From an uncultured Alphaproteobacteria bacterium (GTDB lineage: Bacteria > Pseudomonadota > Alphaproteobacteria > RF32 > CAG-239), in NCBI GenBank assembly GCA_944390275.1, contig CALXPL010000004.1:29139-93138 (forward strand): a stretch of 64,000 nt of DNA, read 5' to 3'. Shown in pieces: positions 8,971-58,029 of the stretch. A program made the translations under genes and the position numbers. Positions within the stretch are counted from its first letter, which is position 1, and every line of letters starts with the position of its first letter. The notes below the pieces were generated by a model. It saw only the letters and a program-made list of their open reading frames with translations, had not been told where the DNA came from and did no database searches.

Positions 8971-10191
8971 TTATTCACAAAATTGAAATTCTTTAAGAAG
9001 CATATTGCCCACAGGTTCAAAGGTAAATAGTTCACGATTATTGAAAATATTATCGCGATAAGTTTGAATTTCTTTATTTGATAAATTTTTAAGATTAACT
9101 AAATCTTGAGGAGATTTAATTAAGAAAGCCATTTTTCGTTTTATTAATTCTTTATAGAGACTATGTTCATCATGAGAAATAAGAGGAATAATGCCGTTCA
9201 TGAGATAACACAAGTCTTTACTGGGATTGTTGCAAAAGGCATAATAAGCCGGCTTGTCGGTAAAAGGATTGTGAGGAATGTTTTGTCCCTGAGGAGAAAG
9301 GTCAAGATGTTTATTTTTGTGAAAATCGGCAACACTTCCGCGAAAAACATCATAGAAGTGAGAAATACCAAAACAAATACATTGATGATGCATAAAGAAG
9401 TGTATTCTATCAGCAAGAATTTCATTATAATTTTCGCCGTTAGCCAGATGATAGAACAATTTTCGTCTGTTCAAAAAGCAATGTTTAAATTTAATGAAAA
9501 GTTGGTTAATTTTTTTGCGGTGCCACAAATGAGGGTTAGGGTAAAGCAAGGGCTTTAATTTTTGAAATTCTTTGGGCGTAGAACAGAGAATACGTCCTAA
9601 AGAGAGGAAAGATTTTTCAAAACAAGCAGAAGTGTTATGTTTTACAAAACGCTCTAAGGGAGTTTCAAACCATCCGAGAAGAATTTTTTTGTTTTTAATT
9701 TCGGGAACATTCAAAAGTACCATATCGCGTAATAAATCATTATCAAAGAGGAAAGCATCGACATAACGAGTTTTTTGTTTAAAGTCTAGTAAGATTTTTT
9801 CATCACCGAAATTGGTATCACCGTTAAAGTAGCGGAGAGATTTTGCTTGAAGATTATTGTCAAAATTAAATTTTGTAATTTTATAAAGGATATCGAGCTC
9901 TTCCGTATCAACTTTTTGCATAGGAAGAAATAATTTTCCACCTCCGAAATGTCCGCCTGTAACAATCAGAGTTTGTGGAGAGAGTTCGAGACTTTTATAA
10001 AAGTCTTGAGTGTCGGAAAAATCAATAATTTGAGCTCCGAGTTGTTCAAAAAGATTATAGTTAGCACAAAAGTATTCAAGTTTGTTTTTTGTTCGAATAA
10101 CTTTCAGATTAAAACCATGCTCTTTAAAGAAAAGAAAATTGTCAGCAAAGAAACATCCTTCTCCGATTAAAATAACTTGTTTATTTTTCAT
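8971..10191 (-). CDS. Hypothetical protein, ~406 aa, His/Cys-rich
   Basis: Long ORF. Start taken at MKNKQVILIGEG.... The ORF track extends to 10260. Co-directional with, and 14 nt downstream of, the CorC gene. Confidence 0.4.
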   Translation of the reverse strand: MKNKQVILIGEGCFFADNFLFFKEHGFNLKVIRTKNKLEYFCANYNLFEQLGAQIIDFSDTQDFYKSLELSPQTLIVTGGHFGGGKLFLPMQKVDTEELDILYKITKFNFDNNLQAKSLRYFNGDTNFGDEKILLDFKQKTRYVDAFLFDNDLLRDMVLLNVPEIKNKKILLGWFETPLERFVKHNTSACFEKSFLSLGRILCSTPKEFQKLKPLLYPNPHLWHRKKINQLFIKFKHCFLNRRKLFYHLANGENYNEILADRIHFFMHHQCICFGISHFYDVFRGSVADFHKNKHLDLSPQGQNIPHNPFTDKPAYYAFCNNPSKDLCYLMNGIIPLISHDEHSLYKELIKRKMAFLIKSPQDLVNLKNLSNKEIQTYRDNIFNNRELFTFEPVGNMLLKEFQFCE

Positions 10192-10274
10192 GTTACGCTC
10201 AAATAAATAAAAACATAAAATTCTAAACCGCAAATTAGAGGTAAAATAAAAAAATTGCAACCTAATAAAATAAA

Positions 10275-16029: not shown

Positions 16030-16251
16030 ATGTGTACGGCGGGATTTTGGACGGATGAAGCAGGAATACGTCATTATTTTAAGAATAGAATGCTTAGCAA
16101 AACGCCGCAACACCAAGTTGTTGATTTTTCAAAAGAAGGAATTTTTATAAAAGATGAACACGGATGTTCTAAAAAAATAACAAAATATGGGTGCCGTATC
16201 GTAAGTTTAGAGACAGAAACAGCTGTGGCTTATATCGAAGTTTTTTGTTAA
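16030..16251 (+). CDS. Hypothetical small protein, 73 aa
   Basis: ORF only. Weak support. Confidence 0.3.
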   Translation: MCTAGFWTDEAGIRHYFKNRMLSKTPQHQVVDFSKEGIFIKDEHGCSKKITKYGCRIVSLETETAVAYIEVFC

Positions 16252-16558: not shown

Positions 16559-19500
16559 TTAGAACTTGTATCCCAAACCGGCATTGATGGCATAGGCATC
16601 ATCCGTTTCAATATATTTGCTGAATTCGCTGTACAAGTTGAATTGCTTGTAACGGTAGTCTAAGCGGAGGGAGAGGACTGCTCTGTCACGACGAGCATCG
16701 TAAGAGTTGACGAAATAATTGATACCGGCATCCGTCATACGAGCTTTTTGAGCTTGGAAGGGATTAGCCAGTTCATGATAATAAGTACCACCGGCACGTA
16801 AGTTAATTTTTCCTTTTTCACCGAGTTCAATTTCTTTGACAGCATACAACCCGATACCTGTTTCAACAGAAATATTATTTGTTGCATTAATTTCCAAAGC
16901 ACTGTCTTTTTCTTTAATTTTACCTTGGTACATACCCAAGACATTAAATTCAAGAGTTGGTTCAAGTCCAAACCATCCCATATCAAAAGTATGGCGAGCT
17001 TCATTGGTAATACCATAATAGTAGTTAGTAACATCACCCTCATAAGAACCACTGGTAACATGTCTCGTGTAGTCGCCGAATCCCATACCGATACGAGGAA
17101 CGGAAACGAGTTTAGAATTTCCGTATTGGAAGGATAGGGGAGCCAAAAGGTGAACCATAATTTCATCACGAGAGGCCGTGTCATCATCATAATCGCTACT
17201 ATATTTTGTTACCATAGCACCAAGACCATAACGGAAGACATCATTATATTTTTTGTCGATTAAGCCAAAAGCGGAGTGAGCTTGGTCATCATAATCAGCA
17301 ATATAAGCCGTAGCATCTTGTTTGCGACCATAGAAGTCATAACCGGCCATGACGCGAATTTCTTGGTTGTCAGAGTTATTTAAGAGAGTAGCGTTGATTT
17401 GTCTGTCAGCACTCTTGATGACATCGAAGTTTTGTTTTGTAAAGTTTGCAAACAAGTCGAGACCAAATTCACCTTTAATTTCATTAGCCAAGTCAGCATT
17501 TGTTTCGGCATATTTGAGTACATTAAAGACTTGAGAAGATTTTCCGGCTTCATAAGAGGAATCGATTTGATTGAGGAGAGCTCTGTCTTGAATTCCTGAA
17601 CTTGAAGATAAAACGGAATTCAAAGCGACTTTTCGAGCCACGATATTATAATTTTTCAAGCCATCTGTTTCAAAAGTCAAAGATTCATTATTGTTCGTAT
17701 CATCTGTTAGTGTTTCATCGTTTGTTTGAGAAGAAGTTTCTTCGGCATTATCGCTAGGAATCGTAATGTCAGATAAATCGACATCATCTTGGCTTTCTTG
17801 AACAGAGACATCACTGAACCAAGCCGTACCTTTGACTTTAAGATTAGAGATATCGGAAGCGGTTAAAGCATTTTTCAAGACATATTCAGATTGATTACCT
17901 TCATCAAGAGCAGAACCGTCAACGCTTAAATTTCCATCCATGGTTGAGGCAATGAACCGACCATTTTCACCGACATAGACGCCGCTATCATTAAAGGACA
18001 TCGGAGCAGCCATGAGGGACATGGTAACTGGCGCACTATAACTTGTTATTGAGGGCGTTGTTGCAGAAGCAACGGTTCCTTGGTTTAAGATAGAACTTGT
18101 TGAATCAATAGAAAAGATATTGCTTGTTCCGTTATTTCCGGCTGTAGTACCGGAAAATAGAATAGTTCCTTGGTTATCAATTTTAGAGTTATTTGTTGCT
18201 TTCATACCAACAACTTCAGAACCTTTCACATAGATATTACTGGTATTGGTAATAGTACTTGAATTATTAGCTTGCATACCGACAATTTTATTACCGGTAA
18301 CAGATAAAGTACCGCCATTAACTCCGGTTGCTCTATTTTCAACCAAAATACCGATGGTAGAATCACCTTCAACCGTTAAAGCACCATTATTTGTTACTTG
18401 TCCGCCTTTAGCAGCATGCATACCGATAGATCCGGTACCTTTAACGGTCATGCTTGCACCACCGGCATTTGTGAGTTGTCCTCCGGAATTTGAAATCATA
18501 CCCACCGAAGCATTACCGGTAACATTAATTTCAGTTTCATTAGTAGCGGATCCTGTATTAATGCTGATACCGGTACCGGATGCGCTGGTAACCGTAATTG
18601 ATCCTTTATTAAAGACAGAGCCACCTGCGATTTCAATACCTGTTCCGCTAGCACCCGACGCAGTAACTGTAATAGTACCGCTATTTGTAACACTGACGGT
18701 ACCGGTTTCGCCTAAGATACCGGTTGTATTACTTTCACCGTTCATGGTAATTGTACCCCCATCATTTTTGAGAGTACCTGATTGAGCATAAAGACCGGCA
18801 GCATCCGAACCATTGAGTGTAATATTACCGGAGTTTGTACCGCTACCGGAAACGACATGAATAGCGTGGAAACCATTATTATTATTCGTAATATCACCAA
18901 GGTTTTTAGCAACACCGTTTTTAACATAAAGAGCAGAGGAGCCGATAGTGTTAATTGTCGCACCGGAAGAGTTAACGATAGTACCACCGTTATCGGCATA
19001 CATCGCATAAGAGTTAGCATTCTGAACATCCAAAATTCCGTTATTCGTAGCGGTACCGGCACCATTAGCGAGCATAGCATAAGCATTTGCTCCACTAACA
19101 CTGATATTTCCGGAAGTTTCGTTAGTAGCGGTACCGGTTCCTTGAATGACCATACCCGCAGCATTATCACCGGTTAAGCTAATAGTTTTGTTATTAGTGA
19201 TAGTACCTTGAACGACGCGCATAGCATGGATACCTTCTTGAGCCAAAGAGATAACCCCGTTATTTATACCGGTACCGGAGTTGACAAGCATAGCGACTTC
19301 GCCGATAGATTGGAGAGAAGCTCCGTCTTCATTAATGATAGTACCTCCGTCAGCTTGCATAGCAACTGCCGTTGCATTATTAGCGATAATCTTTCCATAG
19401 TTAGAAGCCGTACCGCTCGTAGCTTTCATACCGATAGAGTTAGCACCGTTAACAATAATGACGCTGTTTTCGAGAGCATTTGAAGCCGTAGCAGAACCAT

Positions 19501-22500
19501 TTGTTTCCATACCGATAGAATTTTCACCGTTAAGAGTAATACGACCTTGGTTTTCGATACTACCGGCTTCCACGTACATAGCTTTGAAATTACCATTATC
19601 GTTTTCAATAATACCTTCGTTGACGCCTTGTCCGTTGAGAACATACATACCAATGGAACCATCGGTAATTAACTGTCCGGTAGAGGAGTTTTTAATAATA
19701 CCGCCATCGGCATACATAGCCACAGAAGTAGCATCGTTTACTTGAATTGTTCCGCTGTTAATAGCGGTACCTTGAGTTTGGCTATTACCAAGGATTACGC
19801 CGAGAGCGACCATACCTTGAGAGTTTGGACCGTTGACGGTAATAACGCCGTCTAATTCATTGGTAACGGTAGAATTACCGCCGGCTTCCATACCGATAGA
19901 AGAATCACCGCTTGTTGTAATATTAGCATTATTTGTAAGTTGAGCATCGCCTTCACCTTGCATAGCAATAGAATTTGCTCCAGAAACATTGATGATTTTA
20001 TTATTGATAGCGGTACCGGAACGAGCATACATAGCAATAATGCCTTCTTTCGTAAAGGAAAGAGTTCCTTGGTTTTCAGCATTACCGGAATTGACATACA
20101 TGGCATAAATGCTGTTGTTTCCATCGGAGATGGTAATTGTTCCGTTTAGACCATTAACAATTGTTCCGCCATCTGCATACATACCATAAGAATCATCAGC
20201 ATTGATAGTAATATTTTTATTATTTGTTGCCGTTCCTTGAGTTGCTTGCATACCATAAGATTCATCACCGGTAACATCAATATCTCCGCTGTTATCGATA
20301 GTTCCGGAACCATCAGCAATCATACCGGAAGAGCCAGTACTCATAACATTAATAGTTCCTTTGTTACGAGCTTGACCGCTACCGGTAACTTTCATACCGA
20401 TAGATCCGGTAGAGGAGGCTTCTAAATTGATCGTACCTTCATTAAGAGCACCGATAATACTTGTACTTGACGTACCGCCATCTTGAGTTTGGATACCAAC
20501 AGAATTTTGTCCTTGGATAGTAACGGTAGCATTTGTTTTATTGATAATATCGGCAGAAACGCTGTGCATACCGATAGAGCTGTCAGCAGCCATTGTTATT
20601 GAATTATTGTTAGTGCCGCTTCCGTCGGTTGTAAAAATACCATAAGAGTTTTCACCGTCAACAGAGATAGTTCCATCATTCCAAGCCGTAGCCGCACCAA
20701 GCATTTGCATACCGTAAGAATTATCACCGGTAATAGTAATGGTAGCCCCTTGATGGTTAATTGTGGCGGCGGTTTCTTTGTCGCTAGCACCGGAGCCATT
20801 ACCGCCGATACCGACACCGCCGTAGTTAAGGATAATTTGGCTATAGTTATCAAGAGTACCACCCGTTCCTAAATTCATACCATAACCAAACATATCATTA
20901 AGAGTAATAATACCGTAGTTTTTCGCTTCACCTTCATCAAGATACATACCGTAGGCAATATTTTCCGTCGTAGGATATTGACGTCCGGTAATTGTAATAT
21001 TTCCGTTGTTTGTCATACGACTATAAACACCGGTAGAGCCATACATACCATAATTAAGTTTTCCGTTATGATCTGAACTCATAATAATGTCTTTATTATT
21101 AATAATTTGAGCATTTTCGGCAGTAACACTCATACCGATAGAATTGTAACCGGTAACATTGATAGTTCCGTCATTAACGGCATAGTTTTGAGATTCCATA
21201 CCAGTTGACATAGAACCTGTAATATTAATTTGTCCTTGGTTTGAGGCTTGTCCGAGACCGGATTTCATACCGACACCGGTATCATCAATGGTAATAACAC
21301 CGGAACCATAGTTAATAGCATTTCCGCTTGATGTTGACATACCGACACCGCCGGCTTGCATATTAATTTGTCCGTAGTTTTGGTTTAATCCGGATTCGGT
21401 ATGCATACCATTACCGCGTTTAGTAAAGACGATAGATGAGTTTTGGCTGTTAAGGATGTTGGCTTCATTACCCCAAATACCGAAAGAACCGGTATCGACA
21501 TCAATACCTTGAGATAAATCGCCCGTGGTATTAATGTAGAGATTAGCATTATTAATAACACTTCCTTTTTCAGCTTTAATACCATAAGAAGTTTTATTTT
21601 GAGCTTGTTGGGAGTTATTCAAAGTAATATCGGCATTATTTGTTACAATACCATTTTCTGTAGAAATACCATATTGTTCATTAGCATTGTTAATGGTAAT
21701 TGTTTGATTATTAGTGATAGAGCCGACACCGCCTTTAAGACCATAAGCAAGGTTAGACAAAGAGCCGGTATTTCCGTTAATGGTAATGGCAGCATCATTA
21801 ATAATGTTACCAGCGAGGGCTTCGATGGCATAAGCTTCATTTTTATTTGAAATAGTAATTTCAGCGTTATTGTCAACATCGCCTTGAGTTGACTTAATAG
21901 CATAGGCTTTATCATCAAGAGCCCCGGTGGTATTTCCCATAGTAATTGTAGCATTGTTGACAATGTAACCGTTTTCGGTAGAAAGACCATAGCTTTCTTT
22001 AGCATTATTGATAACAATAGCAGCATTATTGTTGATGTCGGTAACGCCGCCTTTAATACCATAAGCGATGGTAGAAGTGATATTGTTGTTATTTTGGTTA
22101 ATAGATATAGTACCGGTATTATTAACGGTACCAGCGAGGGCTTCAATAGCATAAGCCTCGCTTTTATAATCAATATTAATATTTCCGGAGTTCTCAACAT
22201 CACCTTGAGTTGATTTAATGGCATAGGCTTTTGTATCAAGAGCACCATTGTTGTTACTTAAAGTGATATTTGCCGTGTTAGAAATATCACCGTTTTCCGT
22301 AGAAATAGCGTAAGATTCCGTAGCATTATTAATTGTAATAGCCGCATCATTGGAAATATTGCTGTTTCCGCCCTTAATACCATAAGCCAATTTTGATGTG
22401 AGGCTAGTATTTTGGTTAATAGAGATAGTTCCGGTATTATCAACATTTCCGGCAAGAGCTTCAATGGCATAGGTTTCATCTTTGTTAGAGATAGAGATAG

Positions 22501-25198
22501 AAGCAGAGTTATTGACATCACCTTGAGTTGATTTAATAGCATAGGCTTTTGTATCAAGAGCACCATTATTGTTACTTAAAGTGATGTTTGCCGTGTTAGA
22601 AATATCACCGTTTTCTGTCGAAATGGCATAAGATTCCGTAGCATTATTAATGGTAATATTTCCGCTATTAATAATATCACTGTTACCGCCTTTAATGCCA
22701 TAAGCCAAAGCAGAAGTTAAATTTGTTGAAGGATTAATAGAGATAGTTGCAGAATTGTTGACGGTACCGGCGAGGGCTTCAATACCATAAGCATTGTTTT
22801 TGTTAGAAATGGTAAGAGCCGCATTATTTGTAACATCACCTTGAGTTGATTTGATGGCATAGGCTTCGTTATCTAAAGCACCTTTAGAGTTAGTTAAAGA
22901 AATTTGACCATTATTAAGAATAGTACCGTTTTCAATAACGATTCCGTAACTATTGTAGTTATTTGTAATGGAAAGAGTATTATTATTGTTAAGAGTTCCT
23001 TTATTAGCTTTAATAGCAAAAGCAGTTGTTCCGTTGGCACTTGTATTGTTGGTAATTGTAATGGTTCCGTTGTTGTTTACGGTTCCGTCTTCAAGATAGA
23101 TACCGATTGTTTCCGCCGAATTAGAATCGGTAGAACTGTCATCACCGGTAGAGCTATCACCGCTGCTTCCAGAAGAAGAAACATCATTAGTCAAAGCATT
23201 ATCAATAGTGATGCTACTGTTATTATTCGTATTGATAGTACCTTTTTGAGACATACGAATACCGGTTCCGCCGCCTTGAATAGTAATTTCATTATTATTT
23301 TCAATACCGCCGGTATCATGTAAGATTCCGGTACCTTGTTGTTGCAAAGTAATTGTACCATTGTTGATAGACAAACCACCGTTATAAGAAGCGATACCAA
23401 AACCGTTTTTGCTATCAATAGCAATAGTTCCGTTATTTGTCATACTGGGATTATCCTGATCGATTTCAGGATTTTTACCATCGCCGCGCACGGCAATCAT
23501 ACCGTAAGAACCGATACCGCCATCAATACTGATGTATTTATCATTTATAAGAACTCCGTTTCGAATAGAGAACATTCCGGCAACACTTTCGGTAACAGTA
23601 TTGTCTTCACTACCGGTATCAGTAATAGACACTTGGATAGTACCGGAGTTGGTAGCAGTAGTATTTCCATCGGCACGGATACCGATAATACCGCTTAAAC
23701 CTTGAAGGAACATATTATTTCCGTCGCTATCGGTTGCGGAATAAGTACCGTTATCACCGGTTAAAGCGACATCGAGAGCAATATTTCCGTTATTATTAAT
23801 AACAACGTTTCCGGCACGAGAGAAGAGGTAGGAGCCATTTAGAAAAGAGTCTTCGACATAGCTTCCCATACCGACAAGACCTGTACTGATTTCGCGATTA
23901 TCGGCACTTGCGCTAAAAGAAATATTACCGTTATTGGTAAGAGTAGTAGTTGAGAAAGTACCTTTTTCTTGATTAATGATTTGCCCGCGCATACCAATCA
24001 TGGAACCGGCGATACTATCGGCAGATTTTGCCGTACCGGAAATAGTTCCGTTATTGATTATGGTTGAATTAGTATCGGCATACATACCGACAATAGAGTG
24101 ATTATCTTTATCTCCATGGAAAGACATAGAGATAAGGCCGTTTGCATGGTTGGTAGCCGTAGAGCTTTGGCTTGCAATCATAGCCAAGGTACCGTTTTTA
24201 GCATCAATTTTGATAGTATCGTAATTATTTGCGGTACTATTTTTCAAGGCAACCAAAGCAGCCGTATTATCTTTAAGGGTAATAAGGTAATTTTTGCTGG
24301 CATCATAACGAGAAGAGTCGGGACTATAACCGTTATTGACGGTTGAGCGATTGACCCCGCGCATAGCGACTTGAATGTATTGGCTGTAATCGAGAGCACT
24401 ATAACGAAAATCAATTAAATCTGTTAGAGGTTGAGAGGTAGCCCCATCATCTCCGGAAACTTTAATAGAAGAGTTGTTGCTGATAACCCACCCCTCAAGT
24501 TTACCATCTCCGAAGTTATAATCAGGGAAGGCGCCATTAGTTAAAGAACCGCCGAGTTGTTCATCAAGAATAACGCGATTATAATTTGAAGTTTCGGGGG
24601 AGCTGGGAGTCGCTGTACCGACAGTTCCACCCAAGCTGTAGTCGGTTTCATTATAAGAGAGCGGAAAGAAGAAATCGTTTCCACCGCCACCGCCGCCGCC
24701 CATGACGGCAACGAGAATACCACCGAGCAGGATAGCTCCGCCGATAAGCCAAGCAGTTGGTGAGAGCAGATAATCTTCTTCGCCGAGATAAGCATAGGCT
24801 TCACGAGAATTTGCGGTAGTAGGAACCACACGTCTTGATTGCATAAAGGAGTCGCGATTTCTGGCCATAAGGTTTTGCATACAAGGGTGATTCGGATTTG
24901 CACCGGCAGCGCGTAAAGTATTGTAGGCAGTATAATTTCTTTGTTTTATCGCATGACAAAGAGCCGTATTTCCGTTACGATCGAGGGTATCAATATTCAA
25001 GCCGCGTTGGATAGCGGCACGCAAAGCGCGTACATTTCCCATAGTAGCAAGAGTGTACATTTGCGCGTTACTGATAGGGGGAAGATAGGCAAGTGCGGGA
25101 GAACAGATAGATAAAACGAAACCTATTGCCATAAGGGCAATAAGTTTGTTTTGTTTAAAAAAGTTCAACATCCGCATATTAAAATTAAGCCAATACAA
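16559..25198 (-). CDS. Giant type Va autotransporter (2,879 aa): signal peptide, ankyrin-like N-terminal module, hydrophobic segment plus Gly run, Asn/Thr/Gly-rich beta-helical passenger with tandem repeats, C-terminal beta-barrel translocator
   Basis: Signal peptide MRMLNFFKQNKLIALMAIGFVLSICSPALA. GNTALCHAIKQRNYTAYNTLRAAGANPN is an ankyrin repeat. The passenger contains hundreds of NNGTI/GxGI pectate-lyase-like repeats. The last ~300 aa form an autotransporter beta-domain ending ...AINAGLGYKF. Confidence 0.85.
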   Translation of the reverse strand: MYWLNFNMRMLNFFKQNKLIALMAIGFVLSICSPALAYLPPISNAQMYTLATMGNVRALRAAIQRGLNIDTLDRNGNTALCHAIKQRNYTAYNTLRAAGANPNHPCMQNLMARNRDSFMQSRRVVPTTANSREAYAYLGEEDYLLSPTAWLIGGAILLGGILVAVMGGGGGGGNDFFFPLSYNETDYSLGGTVGTATPSSPETSNYNRVILDEQLGGSLTNGAFPDYNFGDGKLEGWVISNNSSIKVSGDDGATSQPLTDLIDFRYSALDYSQYIQVAMRGVNRSTVNNGYSPDSSRYDASKNYLITLKDNTAALVALKNSTANNYDTIKIDAKNGTLAMIASQSSTATNHANGLISMSFHGDKDNHSIVGMYADTNSTIINNGTISGTAKSADSIAGSMIGMRGQIINQEKGTFSTTTLTNNGNISFSASADNREISTGLVGMGSYVEDSFLNGSYLFSRAGNVVINNNGNIALDVALTGDNGTYSATDSDGNNMFLQGLSGIIGIRADGNTTATNSGTIQVSITDTGSEDNTVTESVAGMFSIRNGVLINDKYISIDGGIGSYGMIAVRGDGKNPEIDQDNPSMTNNGTIAIDSKNGFGIASYNGGLSINNGTITLQQQGTGILHDTGGIENNNEITIQGGGTGIRMSQKGTINTNNNSSITIDNALTNDVSSSGSSGDSSTGDDSSTDSNSAETIGIYLEDGTVNNNGTITITNNTSANGTTAFAIKANKGTLNNNNTLSITNNYNSYGIVIENGTILNNGQISLTNSKGALDNEAYAIKSTQGDVTNNAALTISNKNNAYGIEALAGTVNNSATISINPSTNLTSALAYGIKGGNSDIINSGNITINNATESYAISTENGDISNTANITLSNNNGALDTKAYAIKSTQGDVNNSASISISNKDETYAIEALAGNVDNTGTISINQNTSLTSKLAYGIKGGNSNISNDAAITINNATESYAISTENGDISNTANITLSNNNGALDTKAYAIKSTQGDVENSGNINIDYKSEAYAIEALAGTVNNTGTISINQNNNNITSTIAYGIKGGVTDINNNAAIVINNAKESYGLSTENGYIVNNATITMGNTTGALDDKAYAIKSTQGDVDNNAEITISNKNEAYAIEALAGNIINDAAITINGNTGSLSNLAYGLKGGVGSITNNQTITINNANEQYGISTENGIVTNNADITLNNSQQAQNKTSYGIKAEKGSVINNANLYINTTGDLSQGIDVDTGSFGIWGNEANILNSQNSSIVFTKRGNGMHTESGLNQNYGQINMQAGGVGMSTSSGNAINYGSGVITIDDTGVGMKSGLGQASNQGQINITGSMSTGMESQNYAVNDGTINVTGYNSIGMSVTAENAQIINNKDIIMSSDHNGKLNYGMYGSTGVYSRMTNNGNITITGRQYPTTENIAYGMYLDEGEAKNYGIITLNDMFGYGMNLGTGGTLDNYSQIILNYGGVGIGGNGSGASDKETAATINHQGATITITGDNSYGMQMLGAATAWNDGTISVDGENSYGIFTTDGSGTNNNSITMAADSSIGMHSVSADIINKTNATVTIQGQNSVGIQTQDGGTSSTSIIGALNEGTINLEASSTGSIGMKVTGSGQARNKGTINVMSTGSSGMIADGSGTIDNSGDIDVTGDESYGMQATQGTATNNKNITINADDSYGMYADGGTIVNGLNGTITISDGNNSIYAMYVNSGNAENQGTLSFTKEGIIAMYARSGTAINNKIINVSGANSIAMQGEGDAQLTNNANITTSGDSSIGMEAGGNSTVTNELDGVITVNGPNSQGMVALGVILGNSQTQGTAINSGTIQVNDATSVAMYADGGIIKNSSTGQLITDGSIGMYVLNGQGVNEGIIENDNGNFKAMYVEAGSIENQGRITLNGENSIGMETNGSATASNALENSVIIVNGANSIGMKATSGTASNYGKIIANNATAVAMQADGGTIINEDGASLQSIGEVAMLVNSGTGINNGVISLAQEGIHAMRVVQGTITNNKTISLTGDNAAGMVIQGTGTATNETSGNISVSGANAYAMLANGAGTATNNGILDVQNANSYAMYADNGGTIVNSSGATINTIGSSALYVKNGVAKNLGDITNNNNGFHAIHVVSGSGTNSGNITLNGSDAAGLYAQSGTLKNDGGTITMNGESNTTGILGETGTVSVTNSGTITVTASGASGTGIEIAGGSVFNKGSITVTSASGTGISINTGSATNETEINVTGNASVGMISNSGGQLTNAGGASMTVKGTGSIGMHAAKGGQVTNNGALTVEGDSTIGILVENRATGVNGGTLSVTGNKIVGMQANNSSTITNTSNIYVKGSEVVGMKATNNSKIDNQGTILFSGTTAGNNGTSNIFSIDSTSSILNQGTVASATTPSITSYSAPVTMSLMAAPMSFNDSGVYVGENGRFIASTMDGNLSVDGSALDEGNQSEYVLKNALTASDISNLKVKGTAWFSDVSVQESQDDVDLSDITIPSDNAEETSSQTNDETLTDDTNNNESLTFETDGLKNYNIVARKVALNSVLSSSSGIQDRALLNQIDSSYEAGKSSQVFNVLKYAETNADLANEIKGEFGLDLFANFTKQNFDVIKSADRQINATLLNNSDNQEIRVMAGYDFYGRKQDATAYIADYDDQAHSAFGLIDKKYNDVFRYGLGAMVTKYSSDYDDDTASRDEIMVHLLAPLSFQYGNSKLVSVPRIGMGFGDYTRHVTSGSYEGDVTNYYYGITNEARHTFDMGWFGLEPTLEFNVLGMYQGKIKEKDSALEINATNNISVETGIGLYAVKEIELGEKGKINLRAGGTYYHELANPFQAQKARMTDAGINYFVNSYDARRDRAVLSLRLDYRYKQFNLYSEFSKYIETDDAYAINAGLGYKF
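21600..23030 (-). repeat. In-frame tandem array of ~4.5 copies of a 318-bp (106-aa) unit inside the autotransporter passenger
   Basis: Protein residues ~773-1200 repeat GALDxKAYAIKSTQGDV...ITINNATESYAISTENGDISNTANITLSNNN. Alternate-frame ORFs 21643-22248 and 22258-22566 begin with the identical peptide MVLLIQKPM...LNQLKVM, which shows near-identical DNA copies offset by 318 nt. Confidence 0.8.
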
Positions 25199-53926: not shown

Positions 53927-54051
53927 TTGTAAAAGTTAAGGCTGTTAACAAAATATTAAAAAAACTTCAAATTAAGAAAAAAAAGAATAAATTGTAATGT
54001 GAGTTAGATTCAAATTTGGGGAAATTTGAAGAAAATAGGGGAAATATATTT

Positions 54052-57000
54052 ATGTCAAATGAGATAAAAGAAAATACAGACAATAAAAAAGAAGTATTGC
54101 ATCAAAATTATGGGGAAGAGATAGATTCTCAAAATACTTGGCTGACAAAAAATTTATACAAGTTGATGATATGGATAAGTATCATCTGGTTTGCTGTTAT
54201 TTTAATATATATTACCCAATTTTTCGGATGGTCGAATTTGTTTTTAATGATGCCGGATGAATTTGGCGGCTTCATGGCAGGAATAACCTTGCCGCTAGCC
54301 ATTATCTGGGTCGTCATGGCCTACATAGACAGAGGCACGAGTTTTAAGAACGAAGCACGCTTTTTAAGAGCCTATATGAATCAGTTAGTTTATCCGGAAG
54401 ACGGCGGAGCTCAAACGGCGAAAGCCATGGCGGATGCTATACGTTCGCAAGTTAGTGAGTTGCAAGAAGCAACAAAACAGGCCACGATACAAACGGAAAA
54501 GATTCGCGTCGAATTAGGAGAAAGGGTTGATGACTTTGCCAAGATTATCTCGGTATTAGATAATTATTCATCGCACACGGTAGGAGAATTAGCTCGTACG
54601 GTAAAAGAGTTAGCGGGAAATTTAGATTCGATAAATGAGAGAACCCTAAATTCAACAGAGAATTTCCGTAACAGTGTTAATAGTTTATCGAGTACCTATG
54701 AAGAATTGCAAAAAGATACGGAAGAACTTTTAGTAAAGATTTCGCCTAAAGTCAACGACATAAGAGCCACATCGATTGTATTAAAAAGTAGTTCGGAAGA
54801 AGCCTACGGTAATTTATTGAAGGCAAATGAGCTGGTAAAAGATTTGTCGGAAAAGACAGCCAATAATATAAGCAATGCAACGGTATTACTCAATGAGCAT
54901 ATAGAAGAAATAGAGCAGAGTACGGAAAGGACGGTTGAACGTTGTAAAGCCATGAGTGAAGATTTAAAAGGCAATGTCAATTTAATTGAGAACATAATGG
55001 GCGACCAAAATAAACATTTGTTAGAAAATGTAAAGATATTGGAGCAAGGCGGAGATATGATTCGTCAAAAACTATCGGAACACGGGGCTTTAGTCAGTAC
55101 GGAAGTCGATAGGATTATGACAAAGACCAAGGCAATAGAAGAAAGTATCTCCATGCAGGTAAGAGAATTAAGCGGAGTATCAGAAGAAGTTTACAGCTCT
55201 ATGCTCAATGCCGAAAACAACATCAAAGAACAAGCGGATAGATTAGAAAAGACAACGGAAATAGCTGTAAACAATATTAATACAGTCGTCGGAAGTTTGT
55301 CAAACGAAGCAAGTGCCGTAGCGGAAATAGCCGACAAAACGATATTAAAGACGACGGCAATGACAGAAGATATGGTCAATAAACAAGGGACGATGGAAAA
55401 AGTATCGGCAAGTTTGCAAGATAATATTAATGCGATTGCACAAGAATTAAAAGGCAGGACAGAACAGGTTAAGGCACAAACGACAAATTGTATTGAACAA
55501 TTTAATGCTGTTTCAGCAAATATGAAAAAGAATACGGAAATACTATCAGATGCGACTTCAGTGGTCGTTGCGCAGAGCAAAGTCAGTGAAGCGGCCTTGG
55601 CTCAACAACAACGTCATATCAGCAGTTCGGTAAGTCATCTTGAAGAGATAAAGAGCGAATTAAAGCGCGAAATGGATGAGTTAATGAGGACATCGACATT
55701 GGTAAATGAAAATGCCCTTAATGCCGTAAGTGATATTAAAGATAAGATGGAACAAGCCTTAAATGCATCAGAAAATGTAGTTGCACAAACGAGAAAGCTG
55801 AGTGCGGAATTATCGGGACAAAACGATAATTTCATTAAGTCAGCAGATTATACGGTAGAGAAAGTTTTAGGCTTAAATGCCGTATTGGATAAAAATTGTC
55901 AAAGATTGGATGAGTTTTCAAAAGAATTGGATGTTCGAACTAATAATCTTTTAGATAATGTTAATCAGCAAGTAGATTTGTTGAATGCGCATACAGAAAA
56001 TACGGAAAAAACGCATAAAGAATTGTTAGCCTCCTTTACGGAGCAAAACAGATTGCTTAATAGTGTAGCAGAAGAAACGGTAAGTTATGTTTCAGATGTA
56101 ACGAAAGCATTAGATGAAAAAGTAGAAACGGTCAGCATGTTGTTTAAGCATCAAGAAAATGAGTTTTATAGCATTTGCGACAGGATAGCTGAAAATACCA
56201 ATAACATAGGAAATTCATTAAAGAAGCAAGTTTCTGTAATAGAACAAAATGCGGATAAAGTGTTCTCACGTTTAGCAGTTTTGGAAGAAGATGCCAATAA
56301 CCGAGCCCATACCATTAATGAAAATACAGAAAAGACAATAGATAAATTGACATTATTGAACCAAGCGGTAGGAGAACAGAATACGGAAATAATGACTCAA
56401 ATTGAAGAAATGCACGGAAAGTTAGAAGGTGTATCCGAACAGTTTAAGCAACAAGCGGTTGAATTAAATAATATCGTTGATGGAATTAGGCACGGAGCCG
56501 ATGAAGTTGTAGGAACAATAATGAATGGTTGCGATCAAATGAACAAGGCAAACGATAATTTGTCGGAAAGAGGTCGGATAGTCAGCAATATTATGGATGG
56601 ACATTTAAAGAGTTTGGACAGTTCTTTGGCAAAGGCCAAAACACAAAGCGATATGATAAAAGAAACCTTATCGGGGCAAATTGATAGTCTGAGTGATATT
56701 GTTAATGTTGTATCGACTCAAGCACGCTTGGGAGAAGCCTCCTTGGCTCAACAGTACAAATATTTGTCGGATACATCATCAGATTTGGCAAAGAAAATGT
56801 CTGATATCAATGAACAATTTAAAGCCAATACGGAAATAGTTTCTGATGGAACGAACAAACTGTCTTATGAATTTGATGTTATTAGCGACAAGTTGATAAA
56901 AGTAAGTGAAGAAGTAAATAAAAATTCTAAAAATTCGATTCGTAATATGGAACAGGTAGGAATATCCTTGAGTCAAGTATCGGATGATTTAAATGCGGCC

Positions 57001-58029
57001 GTAAATGCATCAGGAGAAAAAATCAATTCGATAATTAAAGAATACCAAAATAATGTTTCCGGTTTCAATACGGTAACGGCAGAAGCAAGTTCAGGAGTTG
57101 TTGAAATTAATAATTTGATAGCGCAGCAAAGCGACAAGATGTTGAAATTATCTGATGGCACAAAAGAATTAGTAGGCTTCTTCAATACAGTATTAAATGA
57201 TACATCGGTACAATTAACCGAGAGAGCGAATGAGGCTTATGACAAAGTGAAGGGATTAGAAGAAAACTTCAAGAAGTTAAGTATTATGTTAACGGATACC
57301 AGCAAACAAAGCACGCACAACATGGAAGATGCGGGAACAAAATTAAGAGCATCATTGAGTGAAGCGGCAGCCAATGCGGAAAGGATATCCAATGACATAC
57401 GCAACTCGGGAGAAGTTTTCTTAAAACAAACGAAAGTCTTATCAACGGCAAGTTCCGATGCGTTGGATAAGGTAAATACGGCAATAGGAGGATTATTAGA
57501 TGTTTCTCATAATTTTGCCAATTGTAGTGATGATATTGTTCAAAAAGCAAACGGTTTTAACACAATATTCAAGAAACAGTTAGATACATTGATAGATACA
57601 TCATCAAAAGCGGAGTTGAAGATAAAAGACATAAATAAAGTCTATGAGGGATTAAAGGTTGATGTATTTTTGCGTAATGCGTCTTACATTTTGGAAAGAC
57701 TTGAGTCTTCGGCCGTAGATATTAGCCGTATTTTCAATCCAGAAGTTGAAGAAGATTTGTGGAAGAAATATTATAACGGCGATACATCGGTATTTGTAAG
57801 ACATTTAGCCAAATCATTGAGTCGTAGCCAGATTATAGCAATAAAGAATGAATACGAAAAGAACAGCGAATTCCGTGATATAGTCAGCCGATATTTAACA
57901 GATTTTGAGAGTTTGGTAAACAAAGCTCGTGATAGTGAAAATTCGGGATTATTGTTGTCTGTTATTTCGGGAGCGGATGTCGGAAAGTTGTATTATGTTT
58001 TAGCGAAGTCTTTGGATAGAATAAACTAA
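54052..58029 (+). CDS. Giant membrane-anchored coiled-coil protein (~1,325 aa), function unknown
   Basis: Two N-terminal TM helices (LMIWISIIWFAVILIYI; GFMAGITLPLAIIWVVMAYI), then ~1,200 aa of low-complexity E/K/Q/N/S/T-rich sequence with heptad-like periodicity, weakly reminiscent of HAMP/MCP signalling helices. Start at the ATG with a gggga RBS. The ORF track starts at 54016. Confidence 0.5.
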   Translation: MSNEIKENTDNKKEVLHQNYGEEIDSQNTWLTKNLYKLMIWISIIWFAVILIYITQFFGWSNLFLMMPDEFGGFMAGITLPLAIIWVVMAYIDRGTSFKNEARFLRAYMNQLVYPEDGGAQTAKAMADAIRSQVSELQEATKQATIQTEKIRVELGERVDDFAKIISVLDNYSSHTVGELARTVKELAGNLDSINERTLNSTENFRNSVNSLSSTYEELQKDTEELLVKISPKVNDIRATSIVLKSSSEEAYGNLLKANELVKDLSEKTANNISNATVLLNEHIEEIEQSTERTVERCKAMSEDLKGNVNLIENIMGDQNKHLLENVKILEQGGDMIRQKLSEHGALVSTEVDRIMTKTKAIEESISMQVRELSGVSEEVYSSMLNAENNIKEQADRLEKTTEIAVNNINTVVGSLSNEASAVAEIADKTILKTTAMTEDMVNKQGTMEKVSASLQDNINAIAQELKGRTEQVKAQTTNCIEQFNAVSANMKKNTEILSDATSVVVAQSKVSEAALAQQQRHISSSVSHLEEIKSELKREMDELMRTSTLVNENALNAVSDIKDKMEQALNASENVVAQTRKLSAELSGQNDNFIKSADYTVEKVLGLNAVLDKNCQRLDEFSKELDVRTNNLLDNVNQQVDLLNAHTENTEKTHKELLASFTEQNRLLNSVAEETVSYVSDVTKALDEKVETVSMLFKHQENEFYSICDRIAENTNNIGNSLKKQVSVIEQNADKVFSRLAVLEEDANNRAHTINENTEKTIDKLTLLNQAVGEQNTEIMTQIEEMHGKLEGVSEQFKQQAVELNNIVDGIRHGADEVVGTIMNGCDQMNKANDNLSERGRIVSNIMDGHLKSLDSSLAKAKTQSDMIKETLSGQIDSLSDIVNVVSTQARLGEASLAQQYKYLSDTSSDLAKKMSDINEQFKANTEIVSDGTNKLSYEFDVISDKLIKVSEEVNKNSKNSIRNMEQVGISLSQVSDDLNAAVNASGEKINSIIKEYQNNVSGFNTVTAEASSGVVEINNLIAQQSDKMLKLSDGTKELVGFFNTVLNDTSVQLTERANEAYDKVKGLEENFKKLSIMLTDTSKQSTHNMEDAGTKLRASLSEAAANAERISNDIRNSGEVFLKQTKVLSTASSDALDKVNTAIGGLLDVSHNFANCSDDIVQKANGFNTIFKKQLDTLIDTSSKAELKIKDINKVYEGLKVDVFLRNASYILERLESSAVDISRIFNPEVEEDLWKKYYNGDTSVFVRHLAKSLSRSQIIAIKNEYEKNSEFRDIVSRYLTDFESLVNKARDSENSGLLLSVISGADVGKLYYVLAKSLDRIN

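Follow-up and report, generated by a model that had tools for sequence, protein, structure and literature searches.

The window analyzed here is a 64,000-nucleotide (nt) stretch of contig CALXPL010000004.1 (positions 29,139 to 93,138, forward strand) from GenBank assembly GCA_944390275.1 of an uncultured gut alphaproteobacterium. Its largest gene, which lies on the minus strand, very probably codes for a type Va (classical) autotransporter of giant size, composed of a Sec signal peptide, an N-terminal leader, a repetitive, Cys-free passenger of ~2,400 amino acids (aa), a helical linker, and a 12-stranded barrel (Table 1). The open reading frame (ORF) measures 8.6 kb or 13.5% of the window, and none in the window is larger, in line with an earlier note on this DNA that had called it the largest gene, at about 13%. 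What is new here, and was missed by that note, is that the leader, an ankyrin-like domain followed by a hydrophobic helix and a poly-Gly run, is shared by many autotransporters with different passengers.

Table 1. Features of the autotransporter gene and its product (positions in the window; aa numbering from the ATG at 25177)
Feature	Position	Strand	Basis
Autotransporter gene, 2,872 codons plus stop (stop codon 16559-16561)	16559..25177	-	Start agrees with orthologs L001-L003 and P0183
Sec-type signal peptide, aa 1-30: basic n-region, hydrophobic core, ALA/Y cleavage motif	25088..25177	-	Read from sequence, predicted
Ankyrin-like domain, aa 31-134: two helix-pair repeats plus capping helices, invariant Cys74 and Cys99	24776..25087	-	Pfam, AlphaFold2, Foldseek
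Gly/Ala-rich hydrophobic helix, aa 141-159 (TAWLIGGAILLGGILVAVM)	24701..24757	-	Kyte-Doolittle 2.17; helical in AlphaFold2 model at low pLDDT
Gly7 run, aa 160-166 (ggc ggc ggc ggt ggc ggt gga)	24680..24700	-	Translation
Passenger, aa 167-2575: N/G/S/T-rich, no Cys, acidic linker and pre-barrel region at its end	17453..24679	-	Composition, periodicity
Tandem repeat within passenger, 318 bp (106 aa) x 3.4 copies, aa ~771-1127	21797..22866	-	Protein autocorrelation peak at 106 aa
Alpha-helical linker before barrel, aa 2576-2600	17378..17452	-	AlphaFold2 helix, residues 177-201 of the C-terminal 473-aa model
12-stranded autotransporter beta-barrel, aa 2607-2872, ending ...GLGYKF	16562..17359	-	AlphaFold2 strands, pLDDT ~70-90; Foldseek
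Terminator-like hairpin followed by T-run, ~60 nt past the stop codon	16475..16499	-	Consensus match only

Membership in type Va is established on the basis of a structure model and of transitive homology. With either the whole protein or its C-terminal 473 aa as query, no match to PF03797 or to any NCBIfam model was obtained even at E <= 10, and PDB sequence searches with the C terminus and its family profile returned nothing useful. Thirteen database proteins were 41 to 51% identical to the C terminus. Nine of the 14 aligned C-terminal sequences matched PF03797 (best E 2e-19), as did the family member P0080 (E 8e-25); the barrel of the window protein is itself too divergent in sequence for such a match. 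When the AlphaFold2 (AF2) model of the barrel was compared by Foldseek, the best 18 PDB matches were all type Va translocators (NalP, AaaA, EstA, Hbp, EspP, BrkA, and AIDA-I), with E values from 2e-12 to 2e-7, NalP (1uyn) being the best at 2.4e-12, and target-normalized TM-scores of up to 0.78. Here and below, the AF2 models were built on shallow alignments (12 sequences for the N-terminal and 14 for the C-terminal model) and have a mean predicted local distance difference test score (pLDDT) of ~60. The C-terminal aromatic residue of the beta-signal was present as F in 38 of 39 members, the exception being a truncated sequence, and in relatives the pre-barrel region has precomputed matches to the Pfam families BigA_3rd and BigA_4th. 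Thus, the helix plus 12-strand model, the type Va matches in Foldseek, and the homologs matching PF03797 uphold the earlier assignment of the protein to the autotransporters, for which there is no direct Pfam match.

The protein begins with the signal-like sequence MRMLNFFKQNKLIALMAIGFVLSICSPALA. By inspection, it comprises an n-region with two Lys and one Arg, a core of ~14 hydrophobic residues, and ALA followed by Y, so that the mature protein would start with YLPP. Behind it lies the ankyrin-like domain, with the ankyrin-like stretch GNTALCHAIKQRNYTAYNTLRAAGANPN at aa 69 to 96. When the isolated N-terminal 199 aa were scanned, Ank_4 scored 26.4 bits (E 8.6e-6) against a gathering cutoff of 22.7 bits; on the full-length protein, the score was 21.1 bits, just under that cutoff, and Ank_2, Ank_5, and Ank stayed below their own cutoffs. 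AF2 modeled aa 35 to 133 confidently (pLDDT 79-90), with helix pairs at 37-57 and 72-91 plus capping helices. All 50 PDB matches listed by Foldseek for the N-terminal model were ankyrin proteins or ankyrin-containing complexes (probability 0.82-1.0), the ankyrin alignment covering ~60 residues at 3 Å with E values of only 0.02 to 0.2. Because the Ank_4 score, the AF2 model, and the Foldseek matches agree, "two-repeat ankyrin-like domain" is a fair description, resting on profile and fold. The earlier note had recognized an ankyrin repeat in this module, and the sequences that it quoted were all found at the N terminus; with Ank_4 above the cutoff on the isolated N terminus and an ankyrin-like modeled core, that recognition stands.

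Only two Cys residues are contained in the mature protein of 2,842 aa, both of them in the ankyrin-like domain. The pair was conserved at the same 25-aa spacing in 39 of 39 members. Since the sole two Cys of the mature protein are invariant in this way, they point to a predicted Cys74-Cys99 disulfide that would be made outside the cytoplasm, in an oxidizing compartment.

In a Kyte-Doolittle scan of the whole protein (19-residue window), only the signal peptide and aa 137 to 166 exceeded 1.6. AF2 predicted an isolated, low-confidence helix at aa 140 to 159 and disorder in the chain that follows it, starting with the Gly run. The summed Hessa free energy of membrane insertion (dG), a crude and position-independent measure, was -0.6 kcal/mol for the best 19-mer of the window protein; the family median was +0.97, and no more than 10 of 39 members had a value below zero. 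On its C-terminal side the helix lacks a positive flank, the mean net charge being -1.4 over the 15 aa that come after the Gly run. Its composition is kept (about four Gly and four Ala per 22 residues, with Trp at the N-terminal end in 30 of 45 members) and its sequence is not (51% identity among orthologs, range 39-64%). This conservation of composition without conservation of sequence suggests that the helix behaves like a lipid-facing segment. The Gly run comprises four to eight Gly in the orthologs, and other family members have a Gly or Gly/Ser run at the same place, in a few cases interrupted or reduced to two or three Gly. In the paralog P0055, SSGGKKKKK replaces the long Gly run at aa ~163-170; judging from the protein sequence only, A-rich Lys codons could provide a slippage-prone tract there and possibly an on/off switch.

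The leader is not confined to this gene. A word-indexed search with the N terminus retrieved only three relatives. A scan of one genome per species yielded 11 loci, all in metagenome-assembled genomes (MAGs) of uncultured Alphaproteobacteria, several with names of gut MAGs ("uncultured Azospirillum sp. UMGS63", HGM16780). Seven of the 11 are full-length orthologs of 2,478 to 3,011 aa with the same layout. At two further, distant loci, L010 and L011, the leader (27-32% identity) precedes a Peptidase_S8 subtilase passenger (PF00082, E 8e-46) and retains the Cys pair, the helix, and the Gly run. The L011 gene (9983-13150) is complete and encodes 1,047 aa, with a C-terminal region that follows the subtilase and ends in ...GLSFAF, and L010 (507-1898) runs off the contig end inside the subtilase domain. 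The L011 subtilase resembles the NalP/SphB1 class, with the leader replacing the lipobox.

When 1.84 billion cluster representatives were searched exhaustively by HMMER with the N-terminal profile, giant multi-ankyrin proteins prevailed among the matches, and we therefore counted only single-stretch, whole-profile, N-terminal matches. Among the best 150 matches, which makes the count a lower bound, at least 36 protein clusters (50% identity) are headed by the leader, mostly with lengths of 1,500 to 2,950 aa. All these representatives have a signal peptide, the ankyrin-like domain, a helix of the W(W)-x-x-GG-x4-GG type, and a Gly or Gly/Ser run, and the complete ones have a barrel ending in F. 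The proteins are unnamed or called "hypothetical protein [Alphaproteobacteria bacterium]", and all come from uncultured Alphaproteobacteria. Since the same order of elements recurred in all 45 family sequences that were aligned, the N-terminal architecture is not a chance arrangement. The leader thus appears, with high confidence from these sequence comparisons, to be a portable, lineage-wide family trait rather than a one-gene oddity. The earlier note had advised looking for ankyrin/autotransporter fusions in relatives; they are present in the orthologs, in the clusters, and in the subtilase autotransporter. A search of the available literature for ankyrin-autotransporter fusions or for an ankyrin-helix-poly-Gly leader found nothing relevant, and the word "ankyrin" is absent from a 2022 classification review of autotransporters.

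Two sets of database proteins were set aside in delimiting the family. Short "stand-alone" ankyrin-helix proteins (P0017-P0023) were considered as a separate family and rejected, as they are contig-end fragments plus one in-frame nonsense variant. The C-terminal homologs P0004-P0016 are all N-terminally truncated gene calls and are uninformative on the presence of the leader. In the paralog clade P0018/P0043, the metagenome contig L015 (7001-7516) has an in-frame TAT-to-TAA nonsense codon right after the leader (..GGGGGKKHHY*FPPNDSF..). Many other contigs, including L016 and L017, end directly past the conserved leader. Assemblies probably break at this point because paralogs share the leader.

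The barrel is usually the conserved part of autotransporters. Among the seven orthologs, identity was 34% for the signal peptide (its sequence drifts, with the hydrophobic character and the AxA motif retained in all members), 86% for the ankyrin domain, 51% for the hydrophobic helix, 86% for the Gly run, 33 to 70% for blocks of the passenger, and 70% for helix plus barrel. Compared with 27 paralog clusters, the median identity was 51% for the ankyrin domain, 30% for the barrel, and ~27% for the best passenger alignment, individual paralog passengers being 25 to 33% identical to the present one in the best alignment. Here the leader and not the barrel is therefore the most conserved part. Because the ankyrin domain is conserved above both barrel and passenger, the pattern points to a strongly constrained interaction.

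The passenger had no sequence relatives in Pfam or PDB. G (12.5%), N (12.3%), S (10.1%), and T (9.9%) together make up 45% of the residues of the protein, and the passenger shows a periodicity of 23 to 24 aa. A beta-solenoid is the natural reading of this periodicity and composition. The labels "major adhesin" and "beta-helix" of the earlier note are plausible in the light of the same periodicity. The copy number of the 106-aa tandem repeat varies among strains: a protein of the same 90% cluster has 2,766 aa versus 2,872 aa here, and the versions called from Met16 have 2,751 versus 2,857 aa, a difference of exactly one 106-aa unit.

The uninterrupted ORF spans 16559 to 25198, as the earlier note had stated without naming the strand. 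Its length of 2,879 codons, also given there, holds only for the mechanical start at TTG 25198. The most likely start is the ATG at 25177 (MRMLNFFKQNK...), which gives 2,872 aa, because the orthologs L001-L003 and the database gene call P0183 begin there; no Shine-Dalgarno-like sequence was evident before this ATG. Public gene calls for the same protein differ in their start, P0183 beginning at 25177 (MRMLNFF...) and P0049 and P0179 at 25132 (MAIGFVL...). The latter start, at Met16, lies inside the signal peptide, halves it, and would hide it from signal-peptide predictors; it is probably wrong.

The gene stands alone, since a terminator-like hairpin follows its stop codon and its neighbors are convergent and divergent. 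No dedicated partner gene was found adjoining it. The neighbors are housekeeping genes (ComEC, GGDEF, cytidylyltransferase, hexapeptide transferase, SfsA, Map, RadC, and PpiD), which are syntenic in close relatives and unrelated at a paralog locus. Because the closest species has the same flanking genes, the gene is, as far as gene order tells, chromosomal and vertically inherited among the orthologs. Elsewhere in the window (1-64000), the long ORFs lie mostly on the plus strand, GC skew is positive nearly throughout (cumulative +4.5), and GC content is 33 to 42%; the autotransporter gene is among the few large minus-strand genes, and the skew flattens over it. The second-largest ORF (54016-58029, plus strand, 1,337 aa) had no Pfam family above the cutoff and, read by eye, has hydrophobic stretches near the N terminus followed by ~1,200 Glu/Lys/Asn-rich residues with a coiled-coil-like look. 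Pfam matches were also absent for a 429-aa ORF (8971-10260, minus strand) and for a 73-aa ORF (16030-16251, plus strand), a candidate gene between the GGDEF gene and the autotransporter terminator.

The protein resembles the long-repeat adhesins of type Va (pertactin/AIDA/BigA-like) in its Sec signal, repetitive Cys-free passenger, helix plus 12-stranded barrel, and C-terminal aromatic residue. It differs from them in the conserved leader of ~135 aa between signal peptide and passenger, in the leader rather than the barrel being most conserved, and in a barrel that misses PF03797. Other points of comparison are the subtilases NalP and SphB1 and the adhesins AlpA and CapA, which also have a hydrophobic element at the N terminus of the mature passenger, thought to retain it at the surface (PMC9289746). 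As in that group, both a subtilase (L011) and adhesin-like passengers carry the leader. In contrast to the lipidated proteins, the element here is a peptide helix, located 110 aa into the mature protein and with a folded domain ahead of it. A lipobox ([LVI][ASTVI][GAS]C at the end of the signal peptide; PMC5472700) was considered and rejected: the only candidate, LSIC, has Ile at -1 and lies six residues before the AxA site, and orthologs have Ser or Thr in place of its Cys.

VacA of Helicobacter pylori has an N-terminal hydrophobic region with three tandem GxxxG motifs essential for channel formation (PMC4926140). The two proteins are alike in an uncharged, Gly-rich stretch near the passenger N terminus, which in VacA crosses the inner membrane without anchoring (PMC4926140); in VacA this stretch is the extreme N terminus, whereas here the ankyrin domain comes first. 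A VacA-like glycine zipper or Gly stripe along one helical face was rejected, as the angular concentration of Gly was 0.32 versus 0.42 in shuffled sequences. GxxxG is absent from the helix of the window protein and present in only 10 of the 45 family members. A different kind of counterpart is the extended signal peptide region (ESPR), a conserved N-terminal element common to type V proteins with unrelated passengers. The ESPR lies ahead of the n-region and leaves with the signal peptide, whereas the present leader follows the predicted cleavage site and has a folded domain; a Pfam scan of the protein gave no match to the ESPR family. In the LysM domain of type Ve proteins (intimin/invasin) and the C-terminal domain of RcsF, a periplasmic part is joined to a surface part across the outer membrane. 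These systems are precedents only for the idea, discussed below, that the leader stops in the periplasm. Type Ve proteins have the barrel at the N terminus and the passenger at the C terminus, and RcsF is a lipoprotein threaded through the barrel of another protein (an outer membrane protein, OMP). Both lack an ankyrin domain and a poly-Gly run, and homology was not detected.

Two ideas about the leader can be assigned very little weight. One holds that the fusion is an annotation artifact, with the true start at a downstream Met or with two fused genes, so that the ankyrin region would lie outside the autotransporter. The Met16 call of P0049 and the lack of an evident Shine-Dalgarno-like sequence would be compatible with it. 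The frame, however, is continuous, aa 31 to 134 are 86% identical over seven species though the surrounding DNA diverges, and complete ORFs at syntenic loci, like dozens of clusters, show the same fusion. We regard an artifact as practically excluded, and with it the case raised in the earlier note that the ankyrin region is 5' untranslated sequence: the region is translated and is the best-conserved part of the protein. The other idea, also from the earlier note, is that the helix is a second signal-anchor (or stop-transfer) segment of the inner membrane or part of an extended signal peptide, leaving the ankyrin domain in the cytoplasm or anchored to the inner membrane in the periplasm. The Kyte-Doolittle value of 2.17 over 19 residues is well within the transmembrane range, and the Gly run might pass for the c-region of a signal peptide with its small residues. 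Hydropathy is the only one of the stop-transfer or signal-anchor measures that the helix passes; dG (above zero in 29 of 39 members, borderline here), flank charge, and topology speak against such a segment, as do the missing ESPR family match and the invariant Cys pair, which argues for an oxidizing compartment. In every member, a complete signal peptide with an AxA site lies 110 aa ahead of the helix, and because the barrel behind the leader must reach the periplasm, we infer that the whole leader is exported by Sec. The helix should then have to pass SecYEG, since a stable N-out/C-in helix would strand ~2,700 residues in the cytoplasm, including passenger and the barrel that requires the beta-barrel assembly machinery (BAM), and no third hydrophobic segment could restart export. 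A second signal-anchor, a stop-transfer helix, or an extended signal peptide is thus very improbable.

Our preferred reading, tentative and held at low confidence, is that the leader acts on the bacterium's own envelope, independently of the passenger, and keeps the passenger N terminus attached to the cell. The helix would be a lipid-embedded anchor, the poly-Gly run and the polar stretch a flexible hinge, and the disulfide-stabilized ankyrin domain would bind a conserved bacterial partner. A generic role is suggested because the same leader heads a subtilase and at least 36 clusters of large autotransporters with different passengers, and a conserved partner because the ankyrin domain is conserved above the barrel among both orthologs (86 versus 70%) and paralogs (51 versus 30%). 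By analogy, the leader may be a protein-based counterpart of the N-terminal lipidation that retains the NalP, SphB1, AlpA, and CapA passengers, subtilases and adhesins alike, on the surface (PMC9289746). Several points weigh against this reading. Canonical secretion proceeds from the C to the N terminus, so that the N terminus emerges last, at the distal tip. A passenger of ~2,300 aa with 24-aa coils would form a rod of ~45 nm, which is hard to square with a membrane-held N terminus, and insertion of a helix into the outer membrane is, to our knowledge, unprecedented in type Va secretion. AF2 packs the helix against nothing, at pLDDT <50; the Kyte-Doolittle value alone would predict a transmembrane helix, and the free-energy sum is crude. 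The high conservation could also reflect a conserved external ligand. In the sharpest version of envelope attachment, the leader would be a stop-transfer device of the outer membrane. The disulfide-locked ankyrin domain would fold in the periplasm, be unable to follow the passenger out, and remain behind, held by a conserved envelope partner; the Gly/Ala helix would leave the BAM-autotransporter hybrid barrel sideways and span the outer membrane, and the poly-Gly run would be the last and thinnest segment threaded. In favor of this version, secretion is known to stall when the N-terminal part of a passenger folds and forms a disulfide (PMC3419692), and the shielding of the ankyrin domain from diversifying selection would be explained. 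It has no type Va precedent, fits poorly with a rod-like passenger of ~45 nm, and is in our judgment improbable.

Two further explanations place the leader elsewhere or limit its action to export. The leader may be secreted last and end up free at the tip of the fiber, where the ankyrin domain would bind a host or bacterial ligand and the helix would insert into a target membrane or self-associate, as in VacA. This is the default outcome under the established model of type Va secretion, ankyrin repeats are protein-binding modules, and the 25-aa Cys spacing could be a small loop tolerated by secretion. VacA shows that an uncharged, Gly-rich, membrane-active N-terminal segment can travel this route (PMC4926140). 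Its hallmark tandem GxxxG is absent here, however, and the Gly residues do not follow one helical face. In addition, an exposed tip under pressure from the host would not usually surpass the barrel in conservation, let alone exceed the neighboring passenger by so wide a margin; one and the same head is found on a subtilase and on very different passengers; and folded, disulfide-bonded N-terminal regions tend to stall secretion (PMC3419692). We consider a free tip rather unlikely. Alternatively, the leader may act only in transit, keep a huge passenger secretion-competent, and perhaps be clipped later; it might, for instance, hold or delay the N terminus at SecYEG or the inner membrane, or bring in the translocation and assembly module (TAM), BAM, or a periplasmic chaperone. 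It would then be a functional counterpart of the ESPR; it occurs, whatever the passenger, only in large type V proteins of a single lineage. Its extreme conservation fits contact with conserved machinery, and its marginal hydrophobicity fits a transient rather than permanent membrane contact. The leader is not tied to giant passengers, however, as the 1,047-aa subtilase autotransporter carries it too. Unlike the ESPR, it follows the signal peptide and is without a Pfam ESPR match; moreover, no conserved neighbor gene suggests a dedicated partner, and a poly-Gly hinge would have no obvious use. We consider a role in biogenesis alone unlikely.

Type V secretion is taken as the simplest of secretion routes, needing a signal peptide, a passenger, and a barrel. 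In the leader family there is a fourth element, which surpasses the barrel in conservation and combines two features normally avoided by passengers: a hydrophobic helix resembling a membrane segment and a folded domain with a probable disulfide. If both features pass SecYEG and the barrel, the known limits of the pathway are stretched; if they are meant to be stopped, this would be a new way of anchoring a passenger. Were the outer membrane stop-transfer version true, the passenger would be anchored at both ends, and type Va would gain an undescribed subclass whose N-terminal domain is periplasmic. Surface-display engineering, too, could use a short, portable leader for fixing a displayed protein by its N terminus. 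The hosts are common, uncultured gut Alphaproteobacteria that are functionally almost unstudied, and leader-headed proteins are their largest surface proteins. The leader is thus a handle for finding the surface repertoire of these bacteria in metagenomes.

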